This document shows positions 13,079 to 24,729 of a stretch of 64,000 nucleotides of DNA, one piece after another. The stretch's first letter is position 1. Each line of letters begins with the position of its first letter. The translations under genes were made by a program, and so were the position numbers. Source of the DNA: an uncultured virus (IMG/VR IMGVR_UViG_3300010340_000980) (lineage: Duplodnaviria; Heunggongvirae; Uroviricota; Caudoviricetes); IMG/VR virus record IMGVR_UViG_3300010340_000980. One strand, written 5' to 3'. Below the pieces are notes generated by a model. That model was not told the DNA's origin. It saw only the letters and a program-made list of their open reading frames with translations, and made no database searches.

Positions 13079-13107
13079 AAAAAATCCACTCATAAAGTGG
13101 ATTTTTT
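13079..13107. terminator. bidirectional intrinsic terminator
   Basis: aaaaaatccact-cataa-agtggatttttt between convergent genes. Confidence 0.8.
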
Positions 13108-13438
13108 AAATACATTTGTATCCTTTACTCTTCTCAAAATCTTCGGCATATCTCAAAATAATTTCTTTGAAATCAGAAGCGGTAACGTTTTTTCCTAAAA
13201 ACCTCTGATATCTAGGAAAAATATCATTAACATTTTCAGCCAATTTTTTTAGACCATTAGCAGCTTGAATAGATTCTTCTTCTGTCATAGAATAAGCCAT
13301 CCAGTTATATGTTATATCTGGATATTTTTCTTCATAATATTTTGCGTTGGATTCTTTACAAAGCTCACCAAGCATATGTTCGGAATTGATACTAGTCATA
13401 AATTCCGAACGGCTTTTGGTTATTATTGTTCTACTCAT
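13106..13438 (-). CDS. hypothetical protein
   Basis: 110 aa ORF. Confidence 0.65.
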   Translation of the reverse strand: MSRTIITKSRSEFMTSINSEHMLGELCKESNAKYYEEKYPDITYNWMAYSMTEEESIQAANGLKKLAENVNDIFPRYQRFLGKNVTASDFKEIILRYAEDFEKSKGYKCI

Positions 13439-13602
13439 TAAAAATCCATTTTATGTTTAGACTTACGGGAATAAGCTTTTTTATCTTTAAAAGTTTGATT
13501 TTTAAAGATATTATAAGCACCTGCTTCAATTATTTCTAATCTACGACGAGTTTTTTCGGCTTTTAAAATATCTTCTCTAGACAATTTTACAGATGCTTTC
13601 AT
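13438..13602 (-). CDS. small basic protein with ArfA-like KKxYxRKxKH tail
   Basis: MKASVKLSREDILKAEKTRRRLEIIEAGAYNIFKNQTFKDKKAYSRKSKHKMDF (54 aa, below ORF-track cutoff); TATCTTTG upstream. Confidence 0.55.
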   Translation of the reverse strand: MKASVKLSREDILKAEKTRRRLEIIEAGAYNIFKNQTFKDKKAYSRKSKHKMDF

Positions 13603-13689: not shown

Positions 13690-13851
13690 ATGGCTCACAT
13701 ACAAAGGTTTAATGAAGAGTTTGATGATTATATAGAAACAGTCACAAGATATATTAACTCTCATAAAGAATATAAGAATATGGATGTTGATGATGTTATA
13801 GAAGAATTGAAAAAAGAAAAACTGTTGAAGAATTATATACCCATGAACTAA
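13690..13851 (+). CDS. small ORF truncated by fusion into a half hairpin
   Basis: MAHIQRFNEE... (53 aa); AATATATA upstream; stop lies inside the half repeat. Confidence 0.5.
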   Translation: MAHIQRFNEEFDDYIETVTRYINSHKEYKNMDVDDVIEELKKEKLLKNYIPMN

Positions 13852-13879
13852 ATAAAAAACTTACATATACGCCTTGTTA
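13835..13879. repeat. attC-like site, right half only
   Basis: atatac..gaactaaataaaaaacttacatatacgccttGTTA, nearly identical to right halves of the sites at 15312 and 21724. Confidence 0.75.
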
Positions 13880-13908
13880 TGTGTTAGTAAAAAAAATAAA
13901 AACTTATT

Positions 13909-14229
13909 ATGAAACATATTAGAAAATTTAACGAATCCGAAAGTTTAGATAAAACTATATTCTCAGGACAGACTAAAAATGGTTGGAAATATAATATAAT
14001 AACAATTAACGATTCAAGAGATGAATTACAATTAACAACTGAAGATGGTGTGGAACTAGATGCTAGTGAAATGTTACACGAAGCGGTTGATGCTTATATT
14101 AATGGAGATGCCAGCACTAAAGGATTTTTAATTGATGTTCAAGACATAACAGAAGCGTATGATAAGATGTATGAACTTATGGACATGGGTTCCAGTCTTG
14201 ATGGATTAGTAGATATGGAGGATATTTAA
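13909..14229 (+). CDS. cassette gene, hypothetical (MKHIRKFNES N-terminus)
   Basis: 106 aa between GTTATGTGT (13876) and ACACATAAC (14249). Confidence 0.75.
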   Translation: MKHIRKFNESESLDKTIFSGQTKNGWKYNIITINDSRDELQLTTEDGVELDASEMLHEAVDAYINGDASTKGFLIDVQDITEAYDKMYELMDMGSSLDGLVDMEDI

Positions 14230-14245
14230 TTTTTTTTATTACACA

Positions 14246-14370
14246 TAACGGTTCTCGGCTTTGCGATGGTGGGGTTTCAAGGCACAAATGTTCAACCCAC
14301 AACTAATGTTTAATAGAATTACAAATGATGAATTTACAACTTCCGCCCCACTATTGCAAAACCGATGTTA
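14246..14370. repeat. attC-like hairpin
   Basis: TAAC ggttc tcggctttgcgatggtgggg ... ccccactattgcaaaaccga t GTTA. Confidence 0.85.
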
Positions 14371-15302
14371 TGCGTAGTGTTTTAGTCCACGCTGATTGCT
14401 TTGATGTGTTTCCATATATTGCTGATAAAAGTGTTGATATGATTTGTTGCGACCTTCCTTATGGAACAACCGCTTGTGCTTGGGATGTAATTATACCATT
14501 TGACAAACTTTGGAATGAGTATAAAAGGATAATAAAAGATAAAGGCGTAATTGTATTATTTGGAAGTGAACCATTTTCTTCATTGTTAAGAACTTCTAAT
14601 TTAGACTGGTATAAATATGATTGGATTTGGGAAAAGAATAATGCAGGGAATTTCCAATTAGTTAAATATCAACCATTAAAGATACACGAATCTATATCTG
14701 TATTTTATAATGAAAATCCTGATATGGAATTTGCTAATATTATGCTTGAAAATATGAAACGATTAAAATTGAAAAATATTGATGTATCAAAATTGGAATT
14801 ATCAAGAACAGGTGGAATGACTGGTTGGGTAACAAATAAATTGAATGGTTCACAATTACCAACAGCCGAACAATGGGATAAAATTTGCAACTTATTTGGA
14901 ATTGAAAACAAGTATTATGAAATTTTAAGTACGGTAAAAAGAGTTACATACAACTTGGATTTAGACGATACAGACATTATTTGCTCAAATAAAGGTAAAG
15001 CAGGAAGCTTAGGGCATCTATCAAGTGAAAGTAAAAGAGATAACTATATACAAACAAAGACAGGTTATCCAAAAAGTATTTTAAAATATGATAGAGAAAA
15101 TGGATTACACCCAACACAAAAACCTTTGGAGCTTATGAAATACTTAATTAAAACCTACTCAAACGAAAATGATGTAGTAATGGATAATTGTATGGGTAGC
15201 AATACAACAGGATTAGCTTGTAAAGAGTTAAATCGTCAATACATAGGAATTGAAAAAGACAAAAATTATTACGATGTTTCGGTTAGCAGGGTGCTGTCTT
15301 AA
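14325..15302 (+). CDS. cassette gene: N4/N6 DNA methyltransferase (beta class) with inserted HTH-like segment
   Basis: DLPY, WIWEK, HPTQKP, DNCMGSNTTG, IGIEKD; alternative start at 14370 inside GTTATG. Confidence 0.88.
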   Translation: MMNLQLPPHYCKTDVMRSVLVHADCFDVFPYIADKSVDMICCDLPYGTTACAWDVIIPFDKLWNEYKRIIKDKGVIVLFGSEPFSSLLRTSNLDWYKYDWIWEKNNAGNFQLVKYQPLKIHESISVFYNENPDMEFANIMLENMKRLKLKNIDVSKLELSRTGGMTGWVTNKLNGSQLPTAEQWDKICNLFGIENKYYEILSTVKRVTYNLDLDDTDIICSNKGKAGSLGHLSSESKRDNYIQTKTGYPKSILKYDRENGLHPTQKPLELMKYLIKTYSNENDVVMDNCMGSNTTGLACKELNRQYIGIEKDKNYYDVSVSRVLS

Positions 15303-15311
15303 CATTACGCA

Positions 15312-15399
15312 TAACGTCTGGTGTATATGTAGGTTTTTAACTCTAAACTTTAATATATACTCTTGAACTAAATAAAAAACTTACATATACACCTTGTTA
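15312..15399. repeat. attC-like hairpin (AATATATA in loop)
   Basis: TAAC..ggtgtatatgtaggttttt...aaaaacttacatatacacc tt GTTA. Confidence 0.85.
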
Positions 15400-15424
15400 T
15401 GTGTTAGTAAAAATATTAAATTAT

Positions 15425-16069
15425 ATGAAATATATTAGATTATTTGAAAACCTGATAGCTAATCAAGAATTAATAGATTATATCAAAAAATTTGATATTC
15501 AAAAGATAAAATTACCATTTTCAAAAAAAGAATATGAATCTTTCATACACAATCTAAGTCCTGATAGATATGATGAAACTGGTTATTTCAGAGATTCTGA
15601 GTATTATAATGGGTTTTTATATAATGGTGAAGAATATTGTAAAGAAGTAACATCTGATTATGATTATCTAAAATTAGTTAAATACTTATTTGACTATAAT
15701 AACAATTTAAAATTTTATGATTTAGGGTGTGGAATAGGAACTCTTCTATATTTTGTAAAGGTAATTGGTTATAAAAATCCAGTCGGGGTTGAATTCCAAT
15801 CGGAATTAAAAGAGTTTCACAAGAAACTTAATTTGGATGTTATATATGGAGATCTACTCAAAATGGATTTATCTTTTTTGAAAGATGCTGATGTTATTTA
15901 TTTATATAAACCGATTTATGATGATTCATTAGCAAATAGTTTGATTGATAAAATACTTAAAAAAACTAAAGAAGGAGTCATAATTATTTATTGTAATCCG
16001 GACGATTACTTTTTTGATAGAGAGATTATTTCACCTTCAAATTTGAACCAATATATTTTAATAAAATAA
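15425..16069 (+). CDS. cassette gene: class I SAM-dependent methyltransferase
   Basis: FYDLGCGIG, GVE, GDLL; ATG at 15425 gives MKYIRLFEN. Confidence 0.75.
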   Translation: MKYIRLFENLIANQELIDYIKKFDIQKIKLPFSKKEYESFIHNLSPDRYDETGYFRDSEYYNGFLYNGEEYCKEVTSDYDYLKLVKYLFDYNNNLKFYDLGCGIGTLLYFVKVIGYKNPVGVEFQSELKEFHKKLNLDVIYGDLLKMDLSFLKDADVIYLYKPIYDDSLANSLIDKILKKTKEGVIIIYCNPDDYFFDREIISPSNLNQYILIK

Positions 16070-16085
16070 TATTTTTTATTACACA

Positions 16086-16133
16086 TAACGGTTGGGTGTA
16101 AAAAATCGTTTTAATGTTTTTTACACTTTGTTA
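16086..16133. repeat. short attC-like hairpin (48 bp)
   Basis: TAAC..gtgtaaaaaa...ttttttacac..GTTA. Confidence 0.8.
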
Positions 16134-16163
16134 TATGAATGTAAATTAAAAATTATACAAATT

Positions 16164-16361
16164 ATGAGAAAAGAATTAACACAAGAAGAGAAAAACTTTC
16201 ACAATTGGTTAGAACAATTTATTAAAGAATCTGGACATCAATGGGGATTTGGATTTTATGTAGAAACTATGGATGGGAAAGTTTTTCATCAAGGAACTGA
16301 TGAATATAAAGAGTGGTATGATGGTAAGTTAGAAGAGTATAAACAAACTCATAATTTTTAA
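16164..16361 (+). CDS. cassette gene, hypothetical
   Basis: ATG at 16164 (MRKELTQEEK); cassette ends complementary over about 25 nt. Confidence 0.7.
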   Translation: MRKELTQEEKNFHNWLEQFIKESGHQWGFGFYVETMDGKVFHQGTDEYKEWYDGKLEEYKQTHNF

Positions 16362-16372
16362 TTTATTTCATA

Positions 16373-16462
16373 TAACGGTTGGGTGTATATGTAGGTTTTT
16401 AACTCTAAACTTTAATATATATACCACTGAACTAAATAAAAACTTACATATACACCTTGTTA
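16373..16462. repeat. attC-like hairpin (AATATATA in loop)
   Basis: Same family as the 15312 and 21724 sites. Confidence 0.85.
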
Positions 16463-16520
16463 TGTGTAAGTAAAAAAAAATAAGTATGTAATTTATTTTA
16501 AAAACTAAAAATTAAATAAG

Positions 16521-16688
16521 ATGGAAAAAATTAAAGAAAAACTTGAAGAAAAAATAGCAATTAGAAAATCTATTGAAGATAGAATTCATGCTGATATTAG
16601 AAATGGAAAAGATTTGGTTAAAAAAGACTTAGATGCTATTTTTGCTTTAAGTTTAGTGATAACTACATTAGAAGAATTGTTAAAATAA
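16521..16688 (+). CDS. cassette gene, 55 aa hypothetical
   Basis: MEKIKEKLEEKIAIRKSIEDRIH...LEELLK, translated by hand. Confidence 0.6.
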   Translation: MEKIKEKLEEKIAIRKSIEDRIHADIRNGKDLVKKDLDAIFALSLVITTLEELLK

Positions 16689-16699
16689 ATTATTACTTA

Positions 16700-16823
16700 T
16701 AACGGTTGGGTGTATATGTAGTGTGAGATTAGAAAGACTAAACATCACTTAACCGATGAACTTAATTAGAAGAACAAATGTTGAATATACCACCAAACCA
16801 CACATTACATATACACCTTGTTA
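16700..16823. repeat. attC-like hairpin
   Basis: TAACggttgggtgtatatgtagtgtg...cacattacatatacaccttGTTA; same family as 18625 and 20484. Confidence 0.85.
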
Positions 16824-16938
16824 TGTGTAGGTGTGATTATTAACTGATGAACTTAAATCGAAGAAATAAAGAAAATTTTAGAAAAAAGAGGGAGGGAAAT
16901 TTTTATTCCTTATATTTGTATATAAATAATATAAAAAA

Positions 16939-17274
16939 ATGACAAAAGACTATTACAAAAATTTAATTGATAAATATATTGAGGAAGATTTTAATGGAAC
17001 TGATAAGTTGAGTTCTGTTTCTGCTTTATGGATATCCGATTCTGAAATTGGCTATAATGATAGACAAGAATTGATGATGTATATTGCTAAAATATGTATA
17101 GATGGATTAAAGTCACATGGTATTAGTAAATTAGATGAAATGGTTTCAAATCCACTTGAAAGTTCAACTAATATAGATAATATGATCGAACAACATGATA
17201 ATATGATTGATAATATTATAGACAACTTAGAAAAATCTTCAGATTCAAAAAAAGATATATTTAATTGTAATTAA
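16939..17274 (+). CDS. cassette gene, hypothetical
   Basis: 111 aa; TATATTTG at 16911. Confidence 0.7.
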   Translation: MTKDYYKNLIDKYIEEDFNGTDKLSSVSALWISDSEIGYNDRQELMMYIAKICIDGLKSHGISKLDEMVSNPLESSTNIDNMIEQHDNMIDNIIDNLEKSSDSKKDIFNCN

Positions 17275-17284
17275 TTTATTTGAA

Positions 17285-17485
17285 ATGAAAGCTATAATTT
17301 TAGATAACTATCCACCTTACTTAACTCCGGGTAAATTATATGAAATAAAGGGACAATCTCAAATTGATCCGAACATTTATTTCGTAGTAACGGATGATGG
17401 ATCTAGAACTTCAGTTGATATTTCAAATCTAAAATTTTCAGACCAAATAAGAAATGAAAAAATAGAAAGTATATTAGTATTTTAA
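17285..17485 (+). CDS. cassette gene, hypothetical (second gene of a two-gene cassette)
   Basis: 66 aa, ends IRNEKIESILVF. Confidence 0.7.
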   Translation: MKAIILDNYPPYLTPGKLYEIKGQSQIDPNIYFVVTDDGSRTSVDISNLKFSDQIRNEKIESILVF

Positions 17486-17559
17486 AAATGCGCGGTGAAG
17501 TTTTTCTAAAATTTTTCTAACACAGAAGTTAATTCAGAGGACAGAACCACACTTACACA

Positions 17560-17690
17560 TAACGGTGACAGATATATTTCAGTTTTTTATTTTTAATATA
17601 TACAAATAAAATTTAATATGAAAAAAGAACTTAAAAACTTACAGACGTTTGAACAAAGAACAGATAAAAAATTGAATATATCTGTTGTTA
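17560..17690. repeat. attC-like hairpin containing promoter motif and start of ORF
   Basis: TAACggtgacagatatatt...aatatatctgttGTTA; near-identical to the 20234 site. Confidence 0.85.
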
Positions 17691-17842
17691 TGAACAGTGT
17701 TTTAGGTGATTTGGAAAAATTGGTTTCTAAATACGATAAAGCTCAAAAGAAAGCAGTTGATGAATTTGATGATAATGTTAATTATGGAAAAGTTAGAGGA
17801 TTAACGGAAGCAATTGAAGTGGTAAAGAAACATTGTTCATAA
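17618..17842 (+). CDS. cassette gene, hypothetical; N-terminus encoded in the hairpin
   Basis: MKKELKNLQTFEQRTDKKLNISVV|MNSV...; stop codon is the TAA of the next TAAC. Confidence 0.7.
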   Translation: MKKELKNLQTFEQRTDKKLNISVVMNSVLGDLEKLVSKYDKAQKKAVDEFDDNVNYGKVRGLTEAIEVVKKHCS

Positions 17843-17926
17843 CGATTGCAAATATATGTAGGTTTTTGTAACAAATGCTTAAAATTTACGTATAACTTAA
17901 TAAAAACTTACATATATTTGTTGTTA
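17840..17926. repeat. attC-like hairpin (TATATTTG in right arm)
   Basis: TAACgattgcaaatatatgtagg...cttacatatatttgttGTTA. Confidence 0.85.
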
Positions 17927-17984
17927 TGTGTATGTATTTTAATTTTTTGTGCGTTGGAAATATTAATTTAAAAATAGAAACAAA

Positions 17985-18194
17985 ATGGAGAAATTTATTG
18001 AAGTAAACGGAAACTGGTTATTTAGTGATGAACATTTTTTATTGACTGAACGAGGTTGGTTAAAAGCAAAAGAACTACAAAATGGTGATAAAGTTATTGG
18101 TGTGAAAGGCGAATCAACAATAAAAAATATTATAGAATGTGGAGAACGACCAGATGCACCTATTGTTGGTGAAACTGGTGCGGTGGAAAATTAA
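17985..18194 (+). CDS. cassette gene: Hint/intein block-B-like fragment
   Basis: SDEHFLLTERGWLKAKELQNGDKVI. Confidence 0.55.
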   Translation: MEKFIEVNGNWLFSDEHFLLTERGWLKAKELQNGDKVIGVKGESTIKNIIECGERPDAPIVGETGAVEN

Positions 18195-18205
18195 AATATT
18201 ACATA

Positions 18206-18292
18206 TAACGTTTTGCGGCTTGGCGAAGGCTGCCTAACGGAAATTTCAAAGTTCGCAGAATGTTTATGGCAGATTTTGCCAAACCGCTGTTA
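18206..18292. repeat. attC-like hairpin
   Basis: TAACgttttgcggcttggcgaa...ttttgccaaaccgctGTTA. Confidence 0.85.
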
Positions 18293-18339
18293 TGTGCTGG
18301 GCGGTTTATCAGCACTAAATTTTATTTAAATGAAACGAA

Positions 18340-18615
18340 ATGAAAACGATTTTTATTTGGATGTTAAGAAAATACGCAAATACCGAAAAAGGTAGAATTG
18401 AAATTATGCGTATAATGGATGATAAGGTTAGTGATAATTATAGTGAGCAAACTTTATATGGAAATGTTTACAACTACTTTATTGAGTTTGTAATGGCAAA
18501 TCCATTTGTAGTAAAATGCACATTTCAAAACGATAAAGAAAGTTTGCGTATTTTAAAAAGCGGTATTGAAAAATCGTTTGATGAAGCAATTGGTTATATT
18601 GAAAACGAAAAGTAG
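18340..18615 (+). CDS. cassette gene, hypothetical
   Basis: 91 aa between GTTATGTGC and GCACATAAC. Confidence 0.7.
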   Translation: MKTIFIWMLRKYANTEKGRIEIMRIMDDKVSDNYSEQTLYGNVYNYFIEFVMANPFVVKCTFQNDKESLRILKSGIEKSFDEAIGYIENEK

Positions 18616-18624
18616 CCTTGCACA

Positions 18625-18747
18625 TAACGGTTGGGTGTATATGTAGTGTGAGATTTGAAACACTAAACCTCACTTAACCAATGAACTTGATTAGAAGTGG
18701 AAACATGAATATATCACAGAACCTCACATTACATATACACCTTGTTA
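18625..18747. repeat. attC-like hairpin
   Basis: Same family as 16700 and 20484. Confidence 0.85.
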
Positions 18748-18866
18748 TGTGTAGGTGTGGCTAATTAAGGTAGAATGTTTAATCGGAGAATTGAACAAAA
18801 ATTTTAAAAGAAAAAGAAGGGTGGGAAATTTAATTTAAAATATTTATATATAAAGAAAATAAATAT

Positions 18867-19367
18867 ATGAAAGATTTGAGAAAATTTATTAAAACCACTA
18901 TACGAGAATTTTTGAATGAAAGCAATTTAGATGGTTATCATTTAGAACCATATCATAAATCATCATACCACAAATATGAGAATGAAAATGATTTAGAATT
19001 TAAGATTGTTAGAGGAAAGGATGGTAAATTGTGGGGTATTGATGTTTATACAACACCATATAAAACATTAATAGGAACTATTGAACTTTCATATAGAAGT
19101 GAAATTATATCATTTGAAGAACAAAGAGATGGACAACCTAATGTTGGTAATATATCAGTTGATGAAAGATTTAGAAATCAAGGATTTGCTAAAATTTTAT
19201 ATAAAAAACTAATATCTGAACTTAAAAAAGATGGTTATAAAAAACTATTTGCTGGTTTAACACGAAATTCTATGTATGTAAATAATATATGGGATAAACT
19301 TAAAGATGGTGAAATAGAGGTGGATTATGATGGAAGAATAAAAACTATCGAATTTATGAATTTATAA
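18867..19367 (+). CDS. cassette gene: GNAT-family acetyltransferase
   Basis: ISVDERFRNQGFAKILY acetyl-CoA binding motif; N-terminus ...IREFLNES. Confidence 0.75.
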   Translation: MKDLRKFIKTTIREFLNESNLDGYHLEPYHKSSYHKYENENDLEFKIVRGKDGKLWGIDVYTTPYKTLIGTIELSYRSEIISFEEQRDGQPNVGNISVDERFRNQGFAKILYKKLISELKKDGYKKLFAGLTRNSMYVNNIWDKLKDGEIEVDYDGRIKTIEFMNL

Positions 19368-19439
19368 AAGTGGGTGGGTTTTTCTTTTAAAATTTTTAAC
19401 CGAAATGTTGATTAGAAGGATAAACTGAACACTTACACA

Positions 19440-19564
19440 TAACGTTCCTCGGATATATGTAGTTTTTTCTTAAATTGAAACACGAAACTTAAATAATATG
19501 GACAAATATAATAAGAACACAGAACTTGAAAATACAGATAAAAAATTACATATATCTGATGTTA
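19440..19564. repeat. attC-like hairpin containing start of ORF
   Basis: TAACgttcctcggatatatgtag...ttacatatatctgatGTTA. Confidence 0.85.
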
Positions 19565-19803
19565 GTGATAGTTCATCTACTCAAATGTGGAAAGACATCA
19601 AAAAGTGGATTATCATAATTTTTTTGTGGTTATCTATACTAATCTTTTCACTTATATTCTTTTATAATAAAACAATGATATTAAGTGGATGGATGTTGAT
19701 AACTGGATTAATAATGTGGTTAAAAGGAAAAGATTACGAAAAATGGTATTGGAAAAATTATGATAATATCAGAAAAGTTGAAAGTGATGTCTATTCTAAA
19801 TGA
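19498..19803 (+). CDS. cassette gene: membrane protein (2 predicted TM segments)
   Basis: Hydrophobic WIIIIFLWLSILIFSLIFF and MILSGWMLITGLIMWL; first 22 codons lie in the hairpin. Confidence 0.7.
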   Translation: MDKYNKNTELENTDKKLHISDVSDSSSTQMWKDIKKWIIIIFLWLSILIFSLIFFYNKTMILSGWMLITGLIMWLKGKDYEKWYWKNYDNIRKVESDVYSK

Positions 19804-19811
19804 ATTATCAC

Positions 19812-19889
19812 TAACGGTTGCAAATATGAGAAGTAAATTTTTTCTATAAAAATAGATAAATCAAAATTTATTTCTTATATTTGTTGTTA
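19812..19889. repeat. attC-like hairpin (TATATTTG in right arm)
   Basis: TAACggttgcaaatatgagaagtaaatttt...aaaatttatttcttatatttgttGTTA. Confidence 0.85.
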
Positions 19890-19930
19890 TATTTGTTGTT
19901 TAATTTATTAACCTTAAAAATAGAAAAAAT

Positions 19931-20230
19931 ATGATACGATTTAAATTAGAAGATGAAAACAATAACTATAAACAATATAGTATTGAAATTGATTTTGTAG
20001 ATGGTGAAGAATTTGATGATTGGTCTTATGATAATAAGGACTTTGAAGATTTCATGGAACAAATGGAGACAGGACATGATAAATGGAATGGTGTTCATGA
20101 TGGGTCGGGTGGTGTTGATAATGATGGTGTTGAGTATGTATCATTTTCATCATATGAAATACAAGATTTTAATACTGCTATAAAGTTATGGAAAGATTTT
20201 TTCAGAAAACTCAATAAATTAAACAATTGA
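19931..20230 (+). CDS. cassette gene, acidic hypothetical protein
   Basis: 99 aa, D/E-rich. Confidence 0.7.
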   Translation: MIRFKLEDENNNYKQYSIEIDFVDGEEFDDWSYDNKDFEDFMEQMETGHDKWNGVHDGSGGVDNDGVEYVSFSSYEIQDFNTAIKLWKDFFRKLNKLNN

Positions 20231-20233
20231 ATA

Positions 20234-20363
20234 TAACGGTTGCAGATATATTTCAGGTTTTTATTTTAATATATACAAATAAACTTTAATATGAAAAAAG
20301 AACTTAAACATTTGAAAACATTTGAACAGAACACAGATAAAAACTTGAATATATCTGATGTTA
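20234..20363. repeat. attC-like hairpin containing promoter motif and start of ORF
   Basis: Near-identical to the 17560 site. Confidence 0.85.
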
Positions 20364-20476
20364 GCAAACAACGTGAACTGTTAATTTTTTTCTTAAATCA
20401 CTTAAATAAAAATCTAAATTTGGGTGTTAGTGAAATGTGGGTTGATGATTTTATACGCATCGGTAAAAAAAATTAA
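20291..20476 (+). CDS. cassette gene, hypothetical; N-terminus encoded in the hairpin
   Basis: MKKELKHLKTFEQNTDKNLNISDV|SKQREL... Confidence 0.65.
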   Translation: MKKELKHLKTFEQNTDKNLNISDVSKQRELLIFFLNHLNKNLNLGVSEMWVDDFIRIGKKN

Positions 20477-20483
20477 TAGTTGC

Positions 20484-20606
20484 TAACGGTTGGGTGTATA
20501 TGTAGTGTGAGATTTGAAACACGGAACTTGACTTAACTACTGATGTTGATTAGAATGATGAACTTGAATACAACACAGAACCTCACATTACATATACACC
20601 TTGTTA
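20484..20606. repeat. attC-like hairpin
   Basis: Same family as 16700 and 18625. Confidence 0.85.
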
Positions 20607-20658
20607 TGTGTTAGTAAAAAACTATAATTTAATATATACTAAAAAAACTTTTAAAATT

Positions 20659-20865
20659 ATGGGAGATAAAATTAAAAAATTCAATGAACATTATGTTGAG
20701 AAAACTTTCAACGAAAAACAAGTCGTTTCAATGTTGGTAGATGCGGTTATGACATCTATGGGTGATGAGTGGATACCACAAGAAGATGAAAATTTTAAAA
20801 GTTTTTTAAGAGGGTATGGACTACTGAGTATATTCCTCGATGAATATGGTTATGATGATTATTAA
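20659..20865 (+). CDS. cassette gene, hypothetical (MGDKIKKFNE)
   Basis: ATG at 20659 downstream of AATATATA. Confidence 0.7.
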   Translation: MGDKIKKFNEHYVEKTFNEKQVVSMLVDAVMTSMGDEWIPQEDENFKSFLRGYGLLSIFLDEYGYDDY

Positions 20866-20882
20866 TAGTTTTTTATTACACA

Positions 20883-20971
20883 TAACGTTTTGGTGTATGA
20901 GAAGGTTTGCTTAGATGAACTTTCAAATTAACCACAAATGCTGATAGCAAACTTTCTTATACACCTTGTTA
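20883..20971. repeat. attC-like hairpin
   Basis: TAAC..ggtgtatgagaaggtttgct...agcaaactttcttatacaccttGTTA. Confidence 0.85.
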
Positions 20972-21126
20972 TGTGTAGGTGTGATTATTAACCGACAATC
21001 TTCAATCGAAGCACAGAAAAAAAGAAGGGGAAATATTTTTTATTTAAGAAATTATTACCTTTATAAATAAAAACAGGGAAACCGAAAACTGATTAGAGTA
21101 GGTAAATTAAAAAACAAAATAAAATT

Positions 21127-21642
21127 ATGGAAAAAACAATTTTTAAATGTAGTAAAATGAAAAAAGTAAAAGTAACTATGATGACACTAATGATGTGTTT
21201 AATGACAAGTGTTGTTTTTGGACAGTGGACATATAAAACAATAAATAGTGAATTTGACGGTTCGTTCAAAAAAGCATATACACAAACAAATAATAGGGGT
21301 TATTTAATGATGGAAGTTGGTGAACCAACTTATAACGACACTATAAAAATTAATAGACCGTTTTTAGCATTAGGCGGTTCTTATTTTTGTGATGACTATA
21401 CTTATATTGATTTTGTATTGGTTGTTAATGGTGTGAATAAAAAATATGAATTAAAAGGTACTAAATCAAGTGATAGTAGAATGTATTATTTTGATGAATC
21501 AATATGGACAGATGAATTTATTAAAGATTTTAAAAGTGCATCAAAATGTTCCATCAGGGTTAATCAAGATTACTGTACAGATGATTATTATCAATTTGTT
21601 TTTTCTGGTTCAACAGCAGCTTATAACTTTATAACAAAATAA
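21127..21642 (+). CDS. cassette gene: exported protein with Sec signal peptide
   Basis: MKKVKVTMMTLMMCLMTSVVFG|QW, Gln after the cleavage site as is typical in Bacteroidota. Confidence 0.7.
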   Translation: MEKTIFKCSKMKKVKVTMMTLMMCLMTSVVFGQWTYKTINSEFDGSFKKAYTQTNNRGYLMMEVGEPTYNDTIKINRPFLALGGSYFCDDYTYIDFVLVVNGVNKKYELKGTKSSDSRMYYFDESIWTDEFIKDFKSASKCSIRVNQDYCTDDYYQFVFSGSTAAYNFITK

Positions 21643-21723
21643 AAAAAATATGTGCGGTGGGTTCTTTTTTCTAAAATTTTCATAACTAAATGTTAATTCG
21701 GAGAACAGAACCACACTTACACA

Positions 21724-21813
21724 TAACGACTGGGTGTATGTGTAGGTTTTTTAACTACAAACTTTAATATATACTCATGAACTAAATAAAAAACTTACAT
21801 ATACACCTTGTTA
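21724..21813. repeat. attC-like hairpin (AATATATA in loop)
   Basis: Same family as 15312 and 16373. Confidence 0.85.
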
Positions 21814-21851
21814 TGTGTTAGTAAAAAAATTAGATAAAATAAAACAAAATT

Positions 21852-22181
21852 ATGAGACATATTAAAAAATTTAACGAAGGATTAGAAGATCACATAATAG
21901 ATGGTGAAAGAACCGATAGTGAATGGGGTAAAGGAAAATATGATAAAGCACATTTATTTGCAGATAAACTAAAAGACGGATTTGCTATAAATATATCAAG
22001 AGAAAATGTGGATAAATTTTTTGATATATTAAAGGACATAACTTGGATAGAATTACCAAAGAGTTCAAAACATTACACAAGTGATAGATACTATTTTGTT
22101 TTATTTGGTAATAGATTATTACACTCTGATAAACCTTATTTTGGTGGTAATGAGTTAGAGGTTTATACACCTTCTATCTAA
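21852..22181 (+). CDS. cassette gene, hypothetical (MRHIKKFNE)
   Basis: 109 aa. Confidence 0.75.
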   Translation: MRHIKKFNEGLEDHIIDGERTDSEWGKGKYDKAHLFADKLKDGFAINISRENVDKFFDILKDITWIELPKSSKHYTSDRYYFVLFGNRLLHSDKPYFGGNELEVYTPSI

Positions 22182-22196
22182 TTTTTTTATTAAACA

Positions 22197-22283
22197 TAAC
22201 GGTTGGGTGTATATGTAGTTTTTATTTGGAAATATCAAAACTTATTCCCACCTTTGTAAAAAAATTACATATACACCTTGTTA
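22197..22283. repeat. attC-like hairpin
   Basis: TAACggttgggtgtatatgtagttttt...aaaaattacatatacaccttGTTA. Confidence 0.85.
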
Positions 22284-22354
22284 TGTGTAGTAATTTTGTG
22301 GGTGGTTTTTTAACTAAAAATTAATTTCCAAATATTTATATATAAAAGAAAACT

Positions 22355-22711
22355 ATGAGTAAAGAAATGAGAGAACAAATCAACAAGGTAAAGAATTTTG
22401 GACAATTCTTGAATGAAAATAAAAAACCTAAAGATAGGTTTTGGTATCATATTACAAGAAATGAGTTGTTTGATAAAGTTGAAAGATATTACAATGAACA
22501 TCAAGATGGATATGTAAAATTGAATTTTGAAATAGAACACGATGGTAGTAAACTACACTTCAATGAATTATATAAACGAGATGGTGGTATCTATGGTGAT
22601 GATTTTGAATTTTATTTCAAAGATGAAAATGGAAAACAATCATCTTGGTATCTTTCAAGACTTGATAAAGAAATTCTTTACGATATTGTAAACAAAATGG
22701 TGGGTGGGTAA
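22355..22711 (+). CDS. cassette gene, hypothetical (...KNFGQFLNE)
   Basis: 118 aa. Confidence 0.75.
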   Translation: MSKEMREQINKVKNFGQFLNENKKPKDRFWYHITRNELFDKVERYYNEHQDGYVKLNFEIEHDGSKLHFNELYKRDGGIYGDDFEFYFKDENGKQSSWYLSRLDKEILYDIVNKMVGG

Positions 22712-22725
22712 AAAATTATTACACA

Positions 22726-22850
22726 TAACGGCTGACAATAACCGTCAGGTGGGGATAAAATGCACCGACCTTTCAACCTGACGTAAAGCATATTAGGTGC
22801 AGATAGCTTCAATTTGGCACATCGCCCCCACTTGCGGTTATTGTTTGTTA
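22726..22850. repeat. attC-like hairpin
   Basis: TAACggctgacaataaccgtcaggtgggg...ccccacttgcggttattgtttGTTA. Confidence 0.85.
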
Positions 22851-22877
22851 TAGGGCGTTTTTTAATTCAAATCAAAA

Positions 22878-23096
22878 ATGGACTATTCAATCGTAGACAC
22901 AAAAGGCAACATTGTAGGAACAATAAGAGAAACCTACCCTGTTAGATTTGTTGACCCAGAAAGGGAGTATGATGTTAATTATCTCGCACCACACCAAAGT
23001 GCTAAAAAACAAAGAGAGGAAGGTTTCTTTACCTTAAAAGGTAAGGATTTAACTCAAAAACAAATATGGCAACTGTTTCTATTAGGGATGCTCTAA
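22878..23096 (+). CDS. integrase-proximal cassette gene, hypothetical
   Basis: 72 aa between GTTATAGGGCGTTTT and AAAATGCCCTATAAC. Confidence 0.7.
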   Translation: MDYSIVDTKGNIVGTIRETYPVRFVDPEREYDVNYLAPHQSAKKQREEGFFTLKGKDLTQKQIWQLFLLGML

Positions 23097-23161
23097 AATG
23101 CCCTATAACTATTATATATCTATACCTCAACTTTTTTACCTTATTTTACTATACTTTTTCT
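23095..23161. other. putative attI-like insertion site
   Basis: Last cassette end (CCCTATAAC, 23109) is not followed by a hairpin; the integrase 5' region follows directly. Confidence 0.6.
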
Positions 23162-23962
23162 ATGAAAAAGACAGACTATTACGAAATTTGTGAACAAAAA
23201 TTGAAATATTTAAATTATTCAGATAGGACAATTAAGTCCTATCTTTTTTATATAAATCAATTTTTATCTACAGTAAATATAGCACCTACCAGACTTACCT
23301 CTTCCGATTTTCAACTCTATTTGGATAGATATCAATTCACTTCAGTTTCTCAACAAAATCAAGTTATCAACGCTATCAGATTTCTTTATAAATTTGGCTT
23401 AAATAAAAAATATGATAAAGTCAGTTTCAAAAGACCAAAATCTGAAAAGAAATTACCCAGAGTTATTGATGGGGAATTTATAAAAGAAAGACTTGGTAAA
23501 ATTGTTAATATAAAACATAAAGCAATACTTACACTGACATATTCAGTTGGTCTCAGAGTTTCTGAAATAGTCAACCTTAAAATAGAAGATATTGACTCCA
23601 AAAGAATGTTAATACATATCAAAAATGCTAAAGGAAGAAAAGATAGAATTGTTCCTTTATCCGATAATGTTTTACTATTATTAAGAGAATACTTTAAACA
23701 ATACAGACCAAAAGAATATCTTTTTAATGGTCAGAATTCAACACAATATTCAATAGTATCATGTCAAGCAATTTATAAAAAATACATAGATCAGAATTCA
23801 TCCATTCACACCCTTAGACACTCATCATTTACAAATCTATTAGAAAACGGAACAGATATCAGGATTATACAGAAGATTGCAGGTCACTCAAACGTAAAAA
23901 CTACTGAAATATACACTCATGTATCTAATCAAATACTTCAAAAAGTAAATTTACCAATTTAA
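23162..23962 (+). CDS. IntI/XerD-like tyrosine recombinase (putative cassette integrase)
   Basis: GLRVSE, KNAKGRKDRIVPL, HTLRHS, AGHSNVKTTEIYTHV (intact R-K-H-R-H-Y); N-terminal SAM-like domain; ATG at 23162 preferred to 23066. Confidence 0.9.
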   Translation: MKKTDYYEICEQKLKYLNYSDRTIKSYLFYINQFLSTVNIAPTRLTSSDFQLYLDRYQFTSVSQQNQVINAIRFLYKFGLNKKYDKVSFKRPKSEKKLPRVIDGEFIKERLGKIVNIKHKAILTLTYSVGLRVSEIVNLKIEDIDSKRMLIHIKNAKGRKDRIVPLSDNVLLLLREYFKQYRPKEYLFNGQNSTQYSIVSCQAIYKKYIDQNSSIHTLRHSSFTNLLENGTDIRIIQKIAGHSNVKTTEIYTHVSNQILQKVNLPI

Positions 23963-23967
23963 AACTT

Positions 23968-24729
23968 TTACCAATTCAAATAATTCGCAAATTCCACAAT
24001 AAGGTATTGATATTCTTCGTCAATATCATTTATTGAATTTTGTCTTTTTAAATTATCTTGAGACCAAAGTGGTCTTAAATTATCAAGTCTATTCACAATG
24101 CTCGATGGGGTGTCTTTTTTGAATTTTGATATCGGAATAATATGATCAACATGCCATTCACCATAATTTTCCCAAGACATATTTTCTAAAAATCTTTTTT
24201 CAAGATGTATTTTTAATTCATTATAATCATAACCTAGTAAATTTTCAGTTGATGATTCCTTTTCAATTTTTAATTGTTCTAATGTTCTTCTAAGAATTCT
24301 TCTCCAGATAAATTGGTGTTTTCTCTTTTGGTAAGATCTTTTTTTGATTTCTCTTTTATTATCAGTAATTTTGTTTAGAACATCTTTATTTTCCTCATAA
24401 TATTTTTTCCTTTTCTCAAGTATATCTTCTCTATTATTGTAATAATATTCCAATTTTTTACTTTTAAGTCTCTCGTGGTGCCTTTCCGAATATCTACGAT
24501 CTCTTTCTCTTTTCTTTTCTTTATTAAGGTTTTGATATATTACTTCTTTATTTTTTTCGTAGTATTCTTTATTTTGACTGCGAAAATGTTCATGTTTGCT
24601 ATAATAATATTCACTTCTTTTTATTGCAACACATTCATTACATTCAGACATATATCCATCTTTATGCCTTTTAGATTTTCTAAAAAAATCAAATTCTTTT
24701 TTTATTTTACAATTTTTACAAACTTTCAT
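23968..24729 (-). CDS. HNH endonuclease
   Basis: N-terminal CxxC...CxxC, WHVDHIIP...NLRPLWSQDN. Confidence 0.8.
   Translation of the reverse strand: MKVCKNCKIKKEFDFFRKSKRHKDGYMSECNECVAIKRSEYYYSKHEHFRSQNKEYYEKNKEVIYQNLNKEKKRERDRRYSERHHERLKSKKLEYYYNNREDILEKRKKYYEENKDVLNKITDNKREIKKRSYQKRKHQFIWRRILRRTLEQLKIEKESSTENLLGYDYNELKIHLEKRFLENMSWENYGEWHVDHIIPISKFKKDTPSSIVNRLDNLRPLWSQDNLKRQNSINDIDEEYQYLIVEFANYLNW

Follow-up and report, generated by a model that had tools for sequence, protein, structure and literature searches.

The + strand of the DNA examined here, a stretch of 64,000 nucleotides (nt) from an uncultured Caudoviricetes virus (IMG/VR record IMGVR_UViG_3300010340_000980; hereafter the window), carries an array of 18 small gene cassettes that runs up to the gene for an Xer-like tyrosine recombinase. 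The two ends of a cassette pair with one another, typically over 15 base pairs (bp), around a G.T wobble at a fixed position. We read the paired ends as the outer half of a folded, single-stranded recombination site, by which the small recombinase would capture genes in the manner of an integron, and give this reading a probability of roughly six in ten. A preliminary description of the same DNA had proposed that the cassettes excise as circles in which an extended site reforms, the + strand being the folded substrate. Several independent computations on the sequence support that interpretation. Three things go beyond it: a second G.T wobble in the inner stem that mirrors the first, a tie between each hairpin and the gene downstream of it, and an enzyme other than an integron integrase.

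How do the ends of a cassette pair? A cassette begins at the GTTA that closes one hairpin and ends at the TAAC that opens the next; for each, the sequence starting at GTTA was compared with the reverse complement of the sequence that leads up to the next TAAC. The five pairs of ends quoted in the preliminary description are all present, exactly and on the + strand. In the cassette 14367-15315 the left, or start, arm (14367..14381) has its wobble G at 14377 and the right, or end, arm (15301..15315) has the opposing T at 15305, with the proposed cut TAA|C at 15314|15315. The left arms of the next three lie at 16820..16835, 17687..17702 and 19561..19575, with their right arms at 17548-17563, 17828-17843 and 19801-19815 respectively. 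The arms of the last cassette lie at 22847..22861 and 23095..23109, the right one ending in a TAAC after which the hairpin is absent. In all five the sole difference is at position 11, a G in the left end against an A in the reverse complement of the right end, which is a G.T pair on the + strand, as had been claimed.

Read from the alignments, the G faces the right-arm T that stands eleven bases before the C of TAAC in 17 of the 18 window cassettes. Eight of these are ungapped at position 11 and seven have one extra left-arm base just before the G; of the remaining two, the cassette at 18289 has an added T/A mismatch at position 10, and that at 19886 has its G at position 10 together with a one-base gap. 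The exception is the cassette at 20360, where only 8 nt are paired.

Does the pairing exceed what DNA of 27% G+C would give by chance? Relatives were gathered by recombinase similarity: 80 loci from genomes, with 55% as the best identity, and 80 from metagenomes, at 70-86% identity. In the metagenome loci the array hairpins again precede the recombinase gene and share its strand. Sites were identified with a fixed rule (TAACG ... TGTTA around an inner stem of 9 bp or more, the best non-overlapping set being kept and spacings above 3500 or below 60 nt dropped), which gave 195 cassettes from 36 loci, the window and 35 related metagenome loci; the genome-collection loci (L001-L080) were scanned by eye and left out of the counts. 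The rule was preferred to minimum free energy alone, by which three window sites were placed wrongly and three more went unfound. It recovered all 17 window sites, and added one false one (21333/21424) that splits a true cassette into two failures, so that the numbers are, if anything, conservative. In an Rfam scan no family accounts for the sites, and the microRNA-like matches, all with E ≥ 0.14, are chance matches to the hairpins.

Over the 195 cassettes the mean anchored alignment score was 14.15 for a cassette's own ends, 6.19 for the ends that face each other in situ across a hairpin, and 6.02 for a random partner from another locus. A cassette's own ends were the better match in 170 cases, equal in 9 and worse in 16 (Wilcoxon p = 1e-29). 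This bears out the earlier contention that own ends often pair better than neighbours across the hairpin, and confirms that the pairing of the ends is real and far beyond chance.

The wobble is equally consistent. Among the 156 cassettes with an own-end score of at least 10, 146 have G/A at left positions 10-13 and none has A/G; when only distinct arm pairs are counted the figure is 120 of 129, and these include 85 different N6 sequences, so that the two arms covary. In the 95 cassettes whose ends pair without a gap at positions 1-10, position 11 is G.T in 80, T/A in 15 and Watson-Crick in none; the 15 form the bulged class, in which an extra base shifts the G to position 12. Each of the four Watson-Crick pair types is found at positions 6-9 of these 95 cassettes, which were chosen for ungapped pairing at 1-10. 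Their pairing is 80-93% Watson-Crick at positions 12-15 and 31-44%, or background, from position 16 on, from which we take the typical arm to be 15 bp. The preliminary description had put the pairing at about 15-25 nt. It does run past the 7-nt R box of an integron site, and some gapped pairings in the window extend to about 27 nt.

On the right arm the T at position 11 is found at 226 of 229 sites, and the next base is A in 197. Outside positions 9-13 mismatches have no strand bias (G/A 9 versus A/G 11; T/C 14 versus C/T 9). A single transition would restore a Watson-Crick pair at position 11, yet none of the 95 has such a pair, and this points to selection acting on the wobble as such. A G+C-richer Bacteroidales metagenome-assembled genome (L011), whose recombinase is 47% identical and whose array likewise lies upstream on the same strand, has G/A at position 11 too.

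Is there a counterpart to this wobble in the hairpin? At 218 of 230 sites the T that stands 15 bases before the G of GTTA faces a G on the 5' side of the stem, making a second fixed G.T. In the hairpin at 15332..15381 (+), for example, G15332 is opposite T15381, the fifteenth base before the G of GTTA at 15396. The pair that follows is T-A at 160 sites or G-C at 60. Near TAAC the 5' side of the hairpin has three or four extra bases (109 and 101 sites), and the inner stems have a general excess of + strand wobbles beyond the fixed position. Alignment of the 5' and 3' sides of about 230 hairpins revealed no bulged G or T in the inner stem; the extra bases of the centre and the fixed G.T are found instead.

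If the centre is taken as the C/G pair plus five bases of the 3' strand, six in all, both wobbles fall at the tenth base pair of their own arm, and in both arms the wobble G is on the strand that runs 5' to 3' away from the centre. The two arms are similar in their common sequences too, TTATGTGTAGT for the outer and GTATATGTAGT for the inner. This spacing is a result of geometry only; it assumes a 6-nt centre, and the attI-like sequence beside the recombinase gene does not match it exactly. Since the inner G.T mirrors the outer one, the folded + strand resembles a two-armed, dif-like core site. The wobble positions are G-C and A-T in duplex DNA and C.A in the folded − strand; only the folded + strand contains wobbles, and native sites form one continuous stem when + folds and have an internal mismatch when − folds.

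Which strand folds the better, and what does circularization contribute? We computed folding energies with DNA parameters. When each cassette was circularized in silico, as the preliminary description had suggested, the reformed site was lower in folding energy than the in-array site by a mean of 7.5 kcal/mol and was the more stable in 175 of 195 cassettes. The circle was said to reform a perfect extended site; more stable it is, but perfect it is not, position 11 being obligatorily non-Watson-Crick. The + strand had a mean advantage of 3.6 kcal/mol over the − strand and folded better in 187 of 195 cassettes; it was favoured by the arms alone in 177 and by the hairpins alone in 166. These energies support the + strand as the probable folded substrate. 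GC skew tracks gene direction and cannot tell the replication strand.

Where does one cassette end and the next begin? The proximal end of the array is the TAAC at 23106-23109, which is hairpin-free on its 3' side; the recombinase gene starts about 50 nt further on. Between them lies a constant attI-like stretch (TATTATATATC...; 23110..23161, +). The variable arm of the last cassette (..T-N6-TAAC) abuts a conserved stretch (TA-nn-ATATAT...) that spans the roughly 55 nt up to the start codon, with no hairpin between the two. The same join, judged by eye and untallied, is found in almost all of 45 upstream stretches (44 related loci and the window). Because the last TAAC meets constant DNA in this way, the join between cassette and constant sequence is on the TAAC side.

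A second line of evidence comes from the association of hairpins with arms, on which the linkage of hairpin to gene mainly rests. Homologous hairpins gave 834 pairs; identity at 10 or more of 12 positions is found for the downstream arm in 111 of these and for the upstream arm in 22, which is background (2-2.7%). Distinct downstream arms are fewer than distinct upstream arms in seven of the eight largest hairpin families. An all-against-all search for shared blocks returned 17, several of which are the recombinase gene itself. One block of 867 nt, 97% identical between L081 and L111, opens 2 nt ahead of the upstream TAAC and closes 9 nt past the start of the downstream one, and seven of the eight informative blocks between loci have their right ends at TAAC. 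By these associations the hairpin appears to travel with the gene downstream of it. Taken together, the end of the array against constant sequence and the linkage of hairpin and downstream arm locate the crossover at TAA|C of the + strand; the moving unit would then be C-hairpin-GTTA-arm-gene-arm-TAA. The cut at AA|C that had been proposed earlier is thereby supported, and only on the + strand does the TAA|C junction have the canonical 5'-arm|centre polarity of cleavage. The centre is CGGTTG in the hairpins and CTATTA in the attI-like site; such a difference would hinder a second strand exchange, and is the only hint that one strand is exchanged.

Several points weigh against a folded + strand cut at TAA|C. 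Every count is conditional on the site-finding rule. The linkage of hairpin to gene is partial: two blocks start at GTTA rather than at TAAC, a block shared by L159 and the window joins a right arm to the hairpin that follows it, and homologous cassette bodies numbered only four. The extra unpaired bases of the centre are on the 5' half of the + strand, whereas the extrahelical bases of classical attC are on the 3' half of the recombined strand; by that single criterion it is − that looks like the 'bottom' strand. The TATAT motif of the attI-like sequence is 3 nt nearer to TAAC than it is in the hairpins, so that the 6-nt centre is not cleanly reproduced. Lastly, G.T would be tolerated as well if the sense transcript folded as RNA, and + is the purine-rich coding strand regardless.

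Might the − strand be the one that folds, as the polarity of a classical integron would have it? The C.A mismatches would then serve as marks akin to extrahelical bases, the crossover would be at G|TTA and each hairpin would belong to the preceding gene. The genes would obey the integron rule of gene first and site after. The three or four extra bases of the centre would fall on the 3' half of the folded − strand, as the extrahelical bases of attC do (PMC5027507), and the three blocks just mentioned, the one that joins a right arm to the next hairpin and the two that start at GTTA, accord with this polarity. Against it stand the hairpin-free last TAAC, seen in almost every one of the 45 stretches upstream of the recombinase, the hairpin families that are linked to the downstream arm (111/834) and not to the upstream one (22/834, background), the right ends of seven of the eight informative blocks at TAAC, and the lesser stability of the − strand in 187 of the 195 cassettes. 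We consider this polarity unlikely.

Might the paired ends act in RNA rather than in DNA? The 5' and 3' ends of a cassette transcript could pair as a panhandle, G.U being allowed, and so protect or regulate the mRNA, and the link with recombination would be incidental. The wobbles do read as G.U on the sense transcript, and the longest open reading frame (ORF) is on the + (folded) strand, directed at the recombinase, in 184 of 195 cassettes. The excess of + strand wobbles in the inner stems beyond the fixed position, and the very long imperfect end-to-end stems of three cassettes (−22 to −28 kcal/mol), point the same way. Tolerance of G.U would scatter the wobbles, however; what is found instead is one position that is never Watson-Crick, with no bias outside positions 9-13. 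Moreover the arms are anchored on invariant TAAC and GTTA boxes that join cassettes to each other and to the constant sequence on the recombinase side, and the same wobble recurs at the mirror position in the hairpin. A role confined to the transcript thus seems improbable to us.

That the arms are a frozen accident, the footprint of an ordinary integron lengthened by low complexity in very A+T-rich DNA (27% G+C) and bearing a functionless, lineage-specific G/T at position 11, draws on the textbook complementarity of a cassette's own ends over the 7-bp R box, but is contradicted by the controls and most improbable: own ends score 14.2, but random partners in these A+T-rich arrays reach only 6.0 and in situ partners 6.2, the pairing is intact across the 85 different N6 sequences, the wobble is retained with a 47%-identical recombinase and G+C-rich arms, and position 11 is Watson-Crick in 0 of 95.

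What kind of enzyme stands at the end of the array? The gene at 23162..23962 (+) encodes 266 amino acids with the catalytic motifs of a tyrosine recombinase: GLRVSE at 130, HTLRHS at 216, GHSN at 241 and IYTHV at 250. It matches PF00589 (phage-integrase catalytic domain) and PF13495 (SAM-like N-terminal domain). The top NCBIfam match, to an XerA/integron integrase model (archaeal XerA), scores 185 bits where the cutoff is 220. TIGR02249, the integron-integrase model, matches in two stretches and at 160.9 bits likewise falls short of its cutoff, 265; NF011946 scores 102 against 435. Aligned with VchIntIA, residues 178-207 of the query stand opposite chain residues 181-258, about 48 residues fewer at the IntI insertion. 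The closest solved structures are archaeal XerA-like, with a continuous alignment to the XerA-like protein of Pyrococcus (4a8e) at 131.8 bits. By these alignments the enzyme is Xer-like, devoid of the IntI-specific insertion (the I2 helix), and not an integron integrase.

Related recombinases are numerous, 7599 of 8000 scored candidates having E ≤ 1e-20. In a check of loci upstream of the recombinase, the site rule returned no sites in L008 and L009 and three scattered matches in L012. The contigs of related recombinases (L008, L009, L012, L013, L020, L021, L025, L027, L031 and others) often stop a few hundred bases past the 3' end of the gene, which suggests that repetitive DNA there breaks the assemblies.

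How might such an enzyme use such a site? That the recombinase acts on the array, that a single strand is exchanged and that the wobbles are read by a protein are suggested by the anatomy of the array and by two published precedents, the integron and the CTX phage. The complete + strand site would read 5'-..AT-N6-TAA|C, a short and partly unpaired centre, the inner stem and loop, and TT-GTTA-N6-GT..-3'. The end arm (AT-N6-TAAC) and the start arm (GTTA-N6-GT) would form a duplex of about 15 bp and the stem of the hairpin a second one, so that the folded + strand would mimic the dyad-symmetric core site of an Xer-type recombinase, arm, 6-nt centre, arm. One monomer would bind the outer arm, composed of the cassette's own two ends, and one the inner stem, and the two wobbles would flag the correct strand and fold to an enzyme that has no integron-type I2 helix. 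The + strand would be cut at TAA|C and exchanged with a duplex attI-like site beside the recombinase gene, and replication would complete the event, as it does in integrons and in CTX-phage integration.

Such a site would have a consequence for the traffic of cassettes. In the array every outer arm combines one end from each of two cassettes and pairs over only about 6 bp. The full site with its wobble can thus form only where the two ends of one cassette come together, as they might in a circle or through long-range pairing in single-stranded DNA. Capture would thus be favoured, and loss from the array rare. We advance more tentatively, as a proposal that may well prove wrong, that the system is an independent second solution to single-stranded recombination, in which an Xer-like enzyme without I2 acts on a hairpin that mimics dif, strand and fold are told by mirror wobbles, capture is a ratchet and each cassette, its gene being on the folded strand behind its own hairpin, brings its own expression signals and needs no common promoter.

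The array itself (13838..23109, +) consists of 18 small cassettes, with the main ORFs all on the + strand, and 17 imperfect hairpins between them, each opened by TAAC(G) and closed by (T)GTTA at all 17 sites. At its distal, left end is a truncated eighteenth hairpin without its TAAC half (13838-13879). The folded sites, from TAAC to GTTA on the + strand, are at 14246..14370, 15312-15399, 16086-16133, 16373-16462, 16700-16823, 17560-17690, 17840-17926, 18206-18292, 18625-18747, 19440-19564, 19812-19889, 20234-20363, 20484-20606, 20883-20971, 21724-21813, 22197-22283 and 22726-22850. The recognized cargo includes an N6/N4 DNA methyltransferase, an S-adenosylmethionine (SAM) methyltransferase and a GNAT acetyltransferase, in addition to proteins of unknown function. 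Near-identical DNA occurs in metagenomes of sludge and of digesters, and portions of it in further metagenomes.

Three cassettes with different and unrelated cargo (16820-17563, 18744-19443 and 20968-21727, all +) have common start modules of about 90 nt and common end modules of about 80 nt, and look as if cargo had been dropped into a ready-made frame. The modules lie at 16820-16940 and 17474-17563, at 18744-18868 and 19356-19443, and at 20968-21128 and 21640-21727; start and end pair over most of their length, and form the imperfect stems of −22 to −28 kcal/mol referred to above. Three ORFs start within hairpin loops, at 17618, 19498 and 20291 (hairpins 17560-17690, 19440-19564 and 20234-20363). 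The hairpin encodes a common N-terminal peptide of about 23 residues (MKKELKNL.../MDKYNKNT...) and the frame reads through GTTA into the cassette; one of the three stops on the TAA of TAAC.

A second N-terminal motif, ..H/K-I-K/R-K/R-F-N-E.., is common to the cassette proteins encoded at 13690-13851, 13909-14229, 20608-20865 and 21852-22181, which differ in the remainder; the first of these ORFs is interrupted by the truncated distal hairpin. An A+T-rich motif (..ATATTTATATATAAA..-like; one copy is TATATTTG) is repeated 10-25 nt upstream of cassette start codons, with copies at about 16915-16935, 18840-18865 and 22325-22350, and may be each cassette's own promoter or leader. Within a cassette, at 21072-21104 (+), is a match to the Rfam cis-regulatory motif DUF805b (RF02914; E = 1e-6), which at 34.5 bits falls narrowly short of the gathering score, 35.6; a 171-residue ORF (21127-21642) begins about 25 nt further downstream. 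Outside the array, two small overlapping ORFs on the − strand (13106-13602) lie between the gene for RNase R and the distal end; one has a weak DUF7230 match, and the two may be a toxin-antitoxin-like pair or a reversed cassette. Directly after the recombinase gene, also on the − strand (23968-24729), is a gene for a 253-residue protein with a weak HNH endonuclease motif, followed by that for ClpP.

What would such a system mean for integron biology? To our knowledge, recombination of a folded single strand is held to need both a special domain, I2, and extrahelical bases, and cassettes are held always to face away from the integrase and to be expressed from one promoter. The system described here appears to break both rules, with a simpler enzyme and with a site whose identity would rest on two wobble pairs. 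How a tyrosine recombinase chooses strand and fold could thereby be tested with a few point mutations. Judged by the recombinase matches the system is very common in environmental Bacteroidota, and integron finders built on IntI and on attC models of the classical kind will overlook a large reservoir of mobile genes. A search of the literature for extended paired cassette ends, for a fixed wobble and for Xer-run arrays of this layout found none described.

How, then, does the system compare with those already known? The cassettes of integrons also have ends that are complementary to one another, over the 7-bp R box, a property reportedly described by Hall, Brookes and Stokes in 1991 and by Stokes et al. 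in 1997. As in an integron, small genes are gathered promiscuously in an array, with imperfect hairpins bounded by inverse AAC and GTT boxes (at 17 of 17 window sites and about 230 related ones); a cassette's two ends match each other and not those of its neighbours; the recombinase gene and a constant insertion site are at one end of the array, the gene being transcribed away from it; and the cut probably falls 5' in the folded strand, at AA|C. In both, moreover, it is the recombined strand that has more G.T pairs: for classical attC, PMC5027507 gives 1.24 G:T mispairs on bottom strands and 0.39 on top strands, and a cut at AA|C. The differences are as plain. The enzyme is without the IntI-specific insertion and scores below the cutoffs of both integron-integrase models; the outer box is about 15 bp rather than 7; fixed mirror G.T wobbles appear to take the place of the extrahelical bases in L''; and the genes are on the folded strand, downstream of their own hairpins and facing the recombinase, an orientation that according to PMC5027507 was never observed in mobile or sedentary integrons.

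A further parallel is the folded attP(+) of the CTX phage, recombined by XerCD. Its DNA imitates a duplex Xer site without extrahelical bases, and PMC4792948 names it as the one reaction that resembles cassette recombination. In both cases the enzyme is of Xer type without an I2 helix, and the folded strand mimics, or here would mimic, a two-armed duplex with a partly unpaired centre. The phage borrows the XerCD of its host, whereas here a dedicated recombinase stands beside an array of many cassettes.

The resemblance extends to dif itself, though only in part. The arms ...ATAA| and |TTAT... of the present site resemble what we take to be the inner parts of the dif arms, and the layout of dif is 11-6-11. 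Unlike those of an Xer/dif site, the arms are free in sequence, as the covarying N6 attests, their identity seemingly resting on the wobbles, and control of the FtsK type is not evident here.

Another comparison is with rAID-1 of gut Bacteroidales (Ross et al. 2019; bioRxiv 10.1101/471110), defined by a XerD-like recombinase more than 44% identical to BF9343_RS08045 that lies 5' of at least two co-directional genes of low G+C. The two have in common a recombinase of the XerD family, low-G+C arrays of many small co-directional genes, integron-like repeats and the same phylum. Layout sets them apart, the recombinase being 3' of the genes here and 5' of them there. The cargo differs too, immunity genes in rAID-1 and here DNA and SAM methyltransferases, a GNAT protein and unknowns. 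The passages of the preprint that were consulted describe no site structure, paired ends or wobble, though its figures or supplements may show a repeat motif. In the IntegronFinder 2.0 report (PMC9024848) the Bacteroidetes have one complete integron, that of Salinibacter ruber. We conclude that the present system appears to work in the manner of an integron and yet is not one by the usual definition, for it has no IntI domain, its genes are on the recombined strand and its outer box is a wobble-bearing duplex of about 15 bp.

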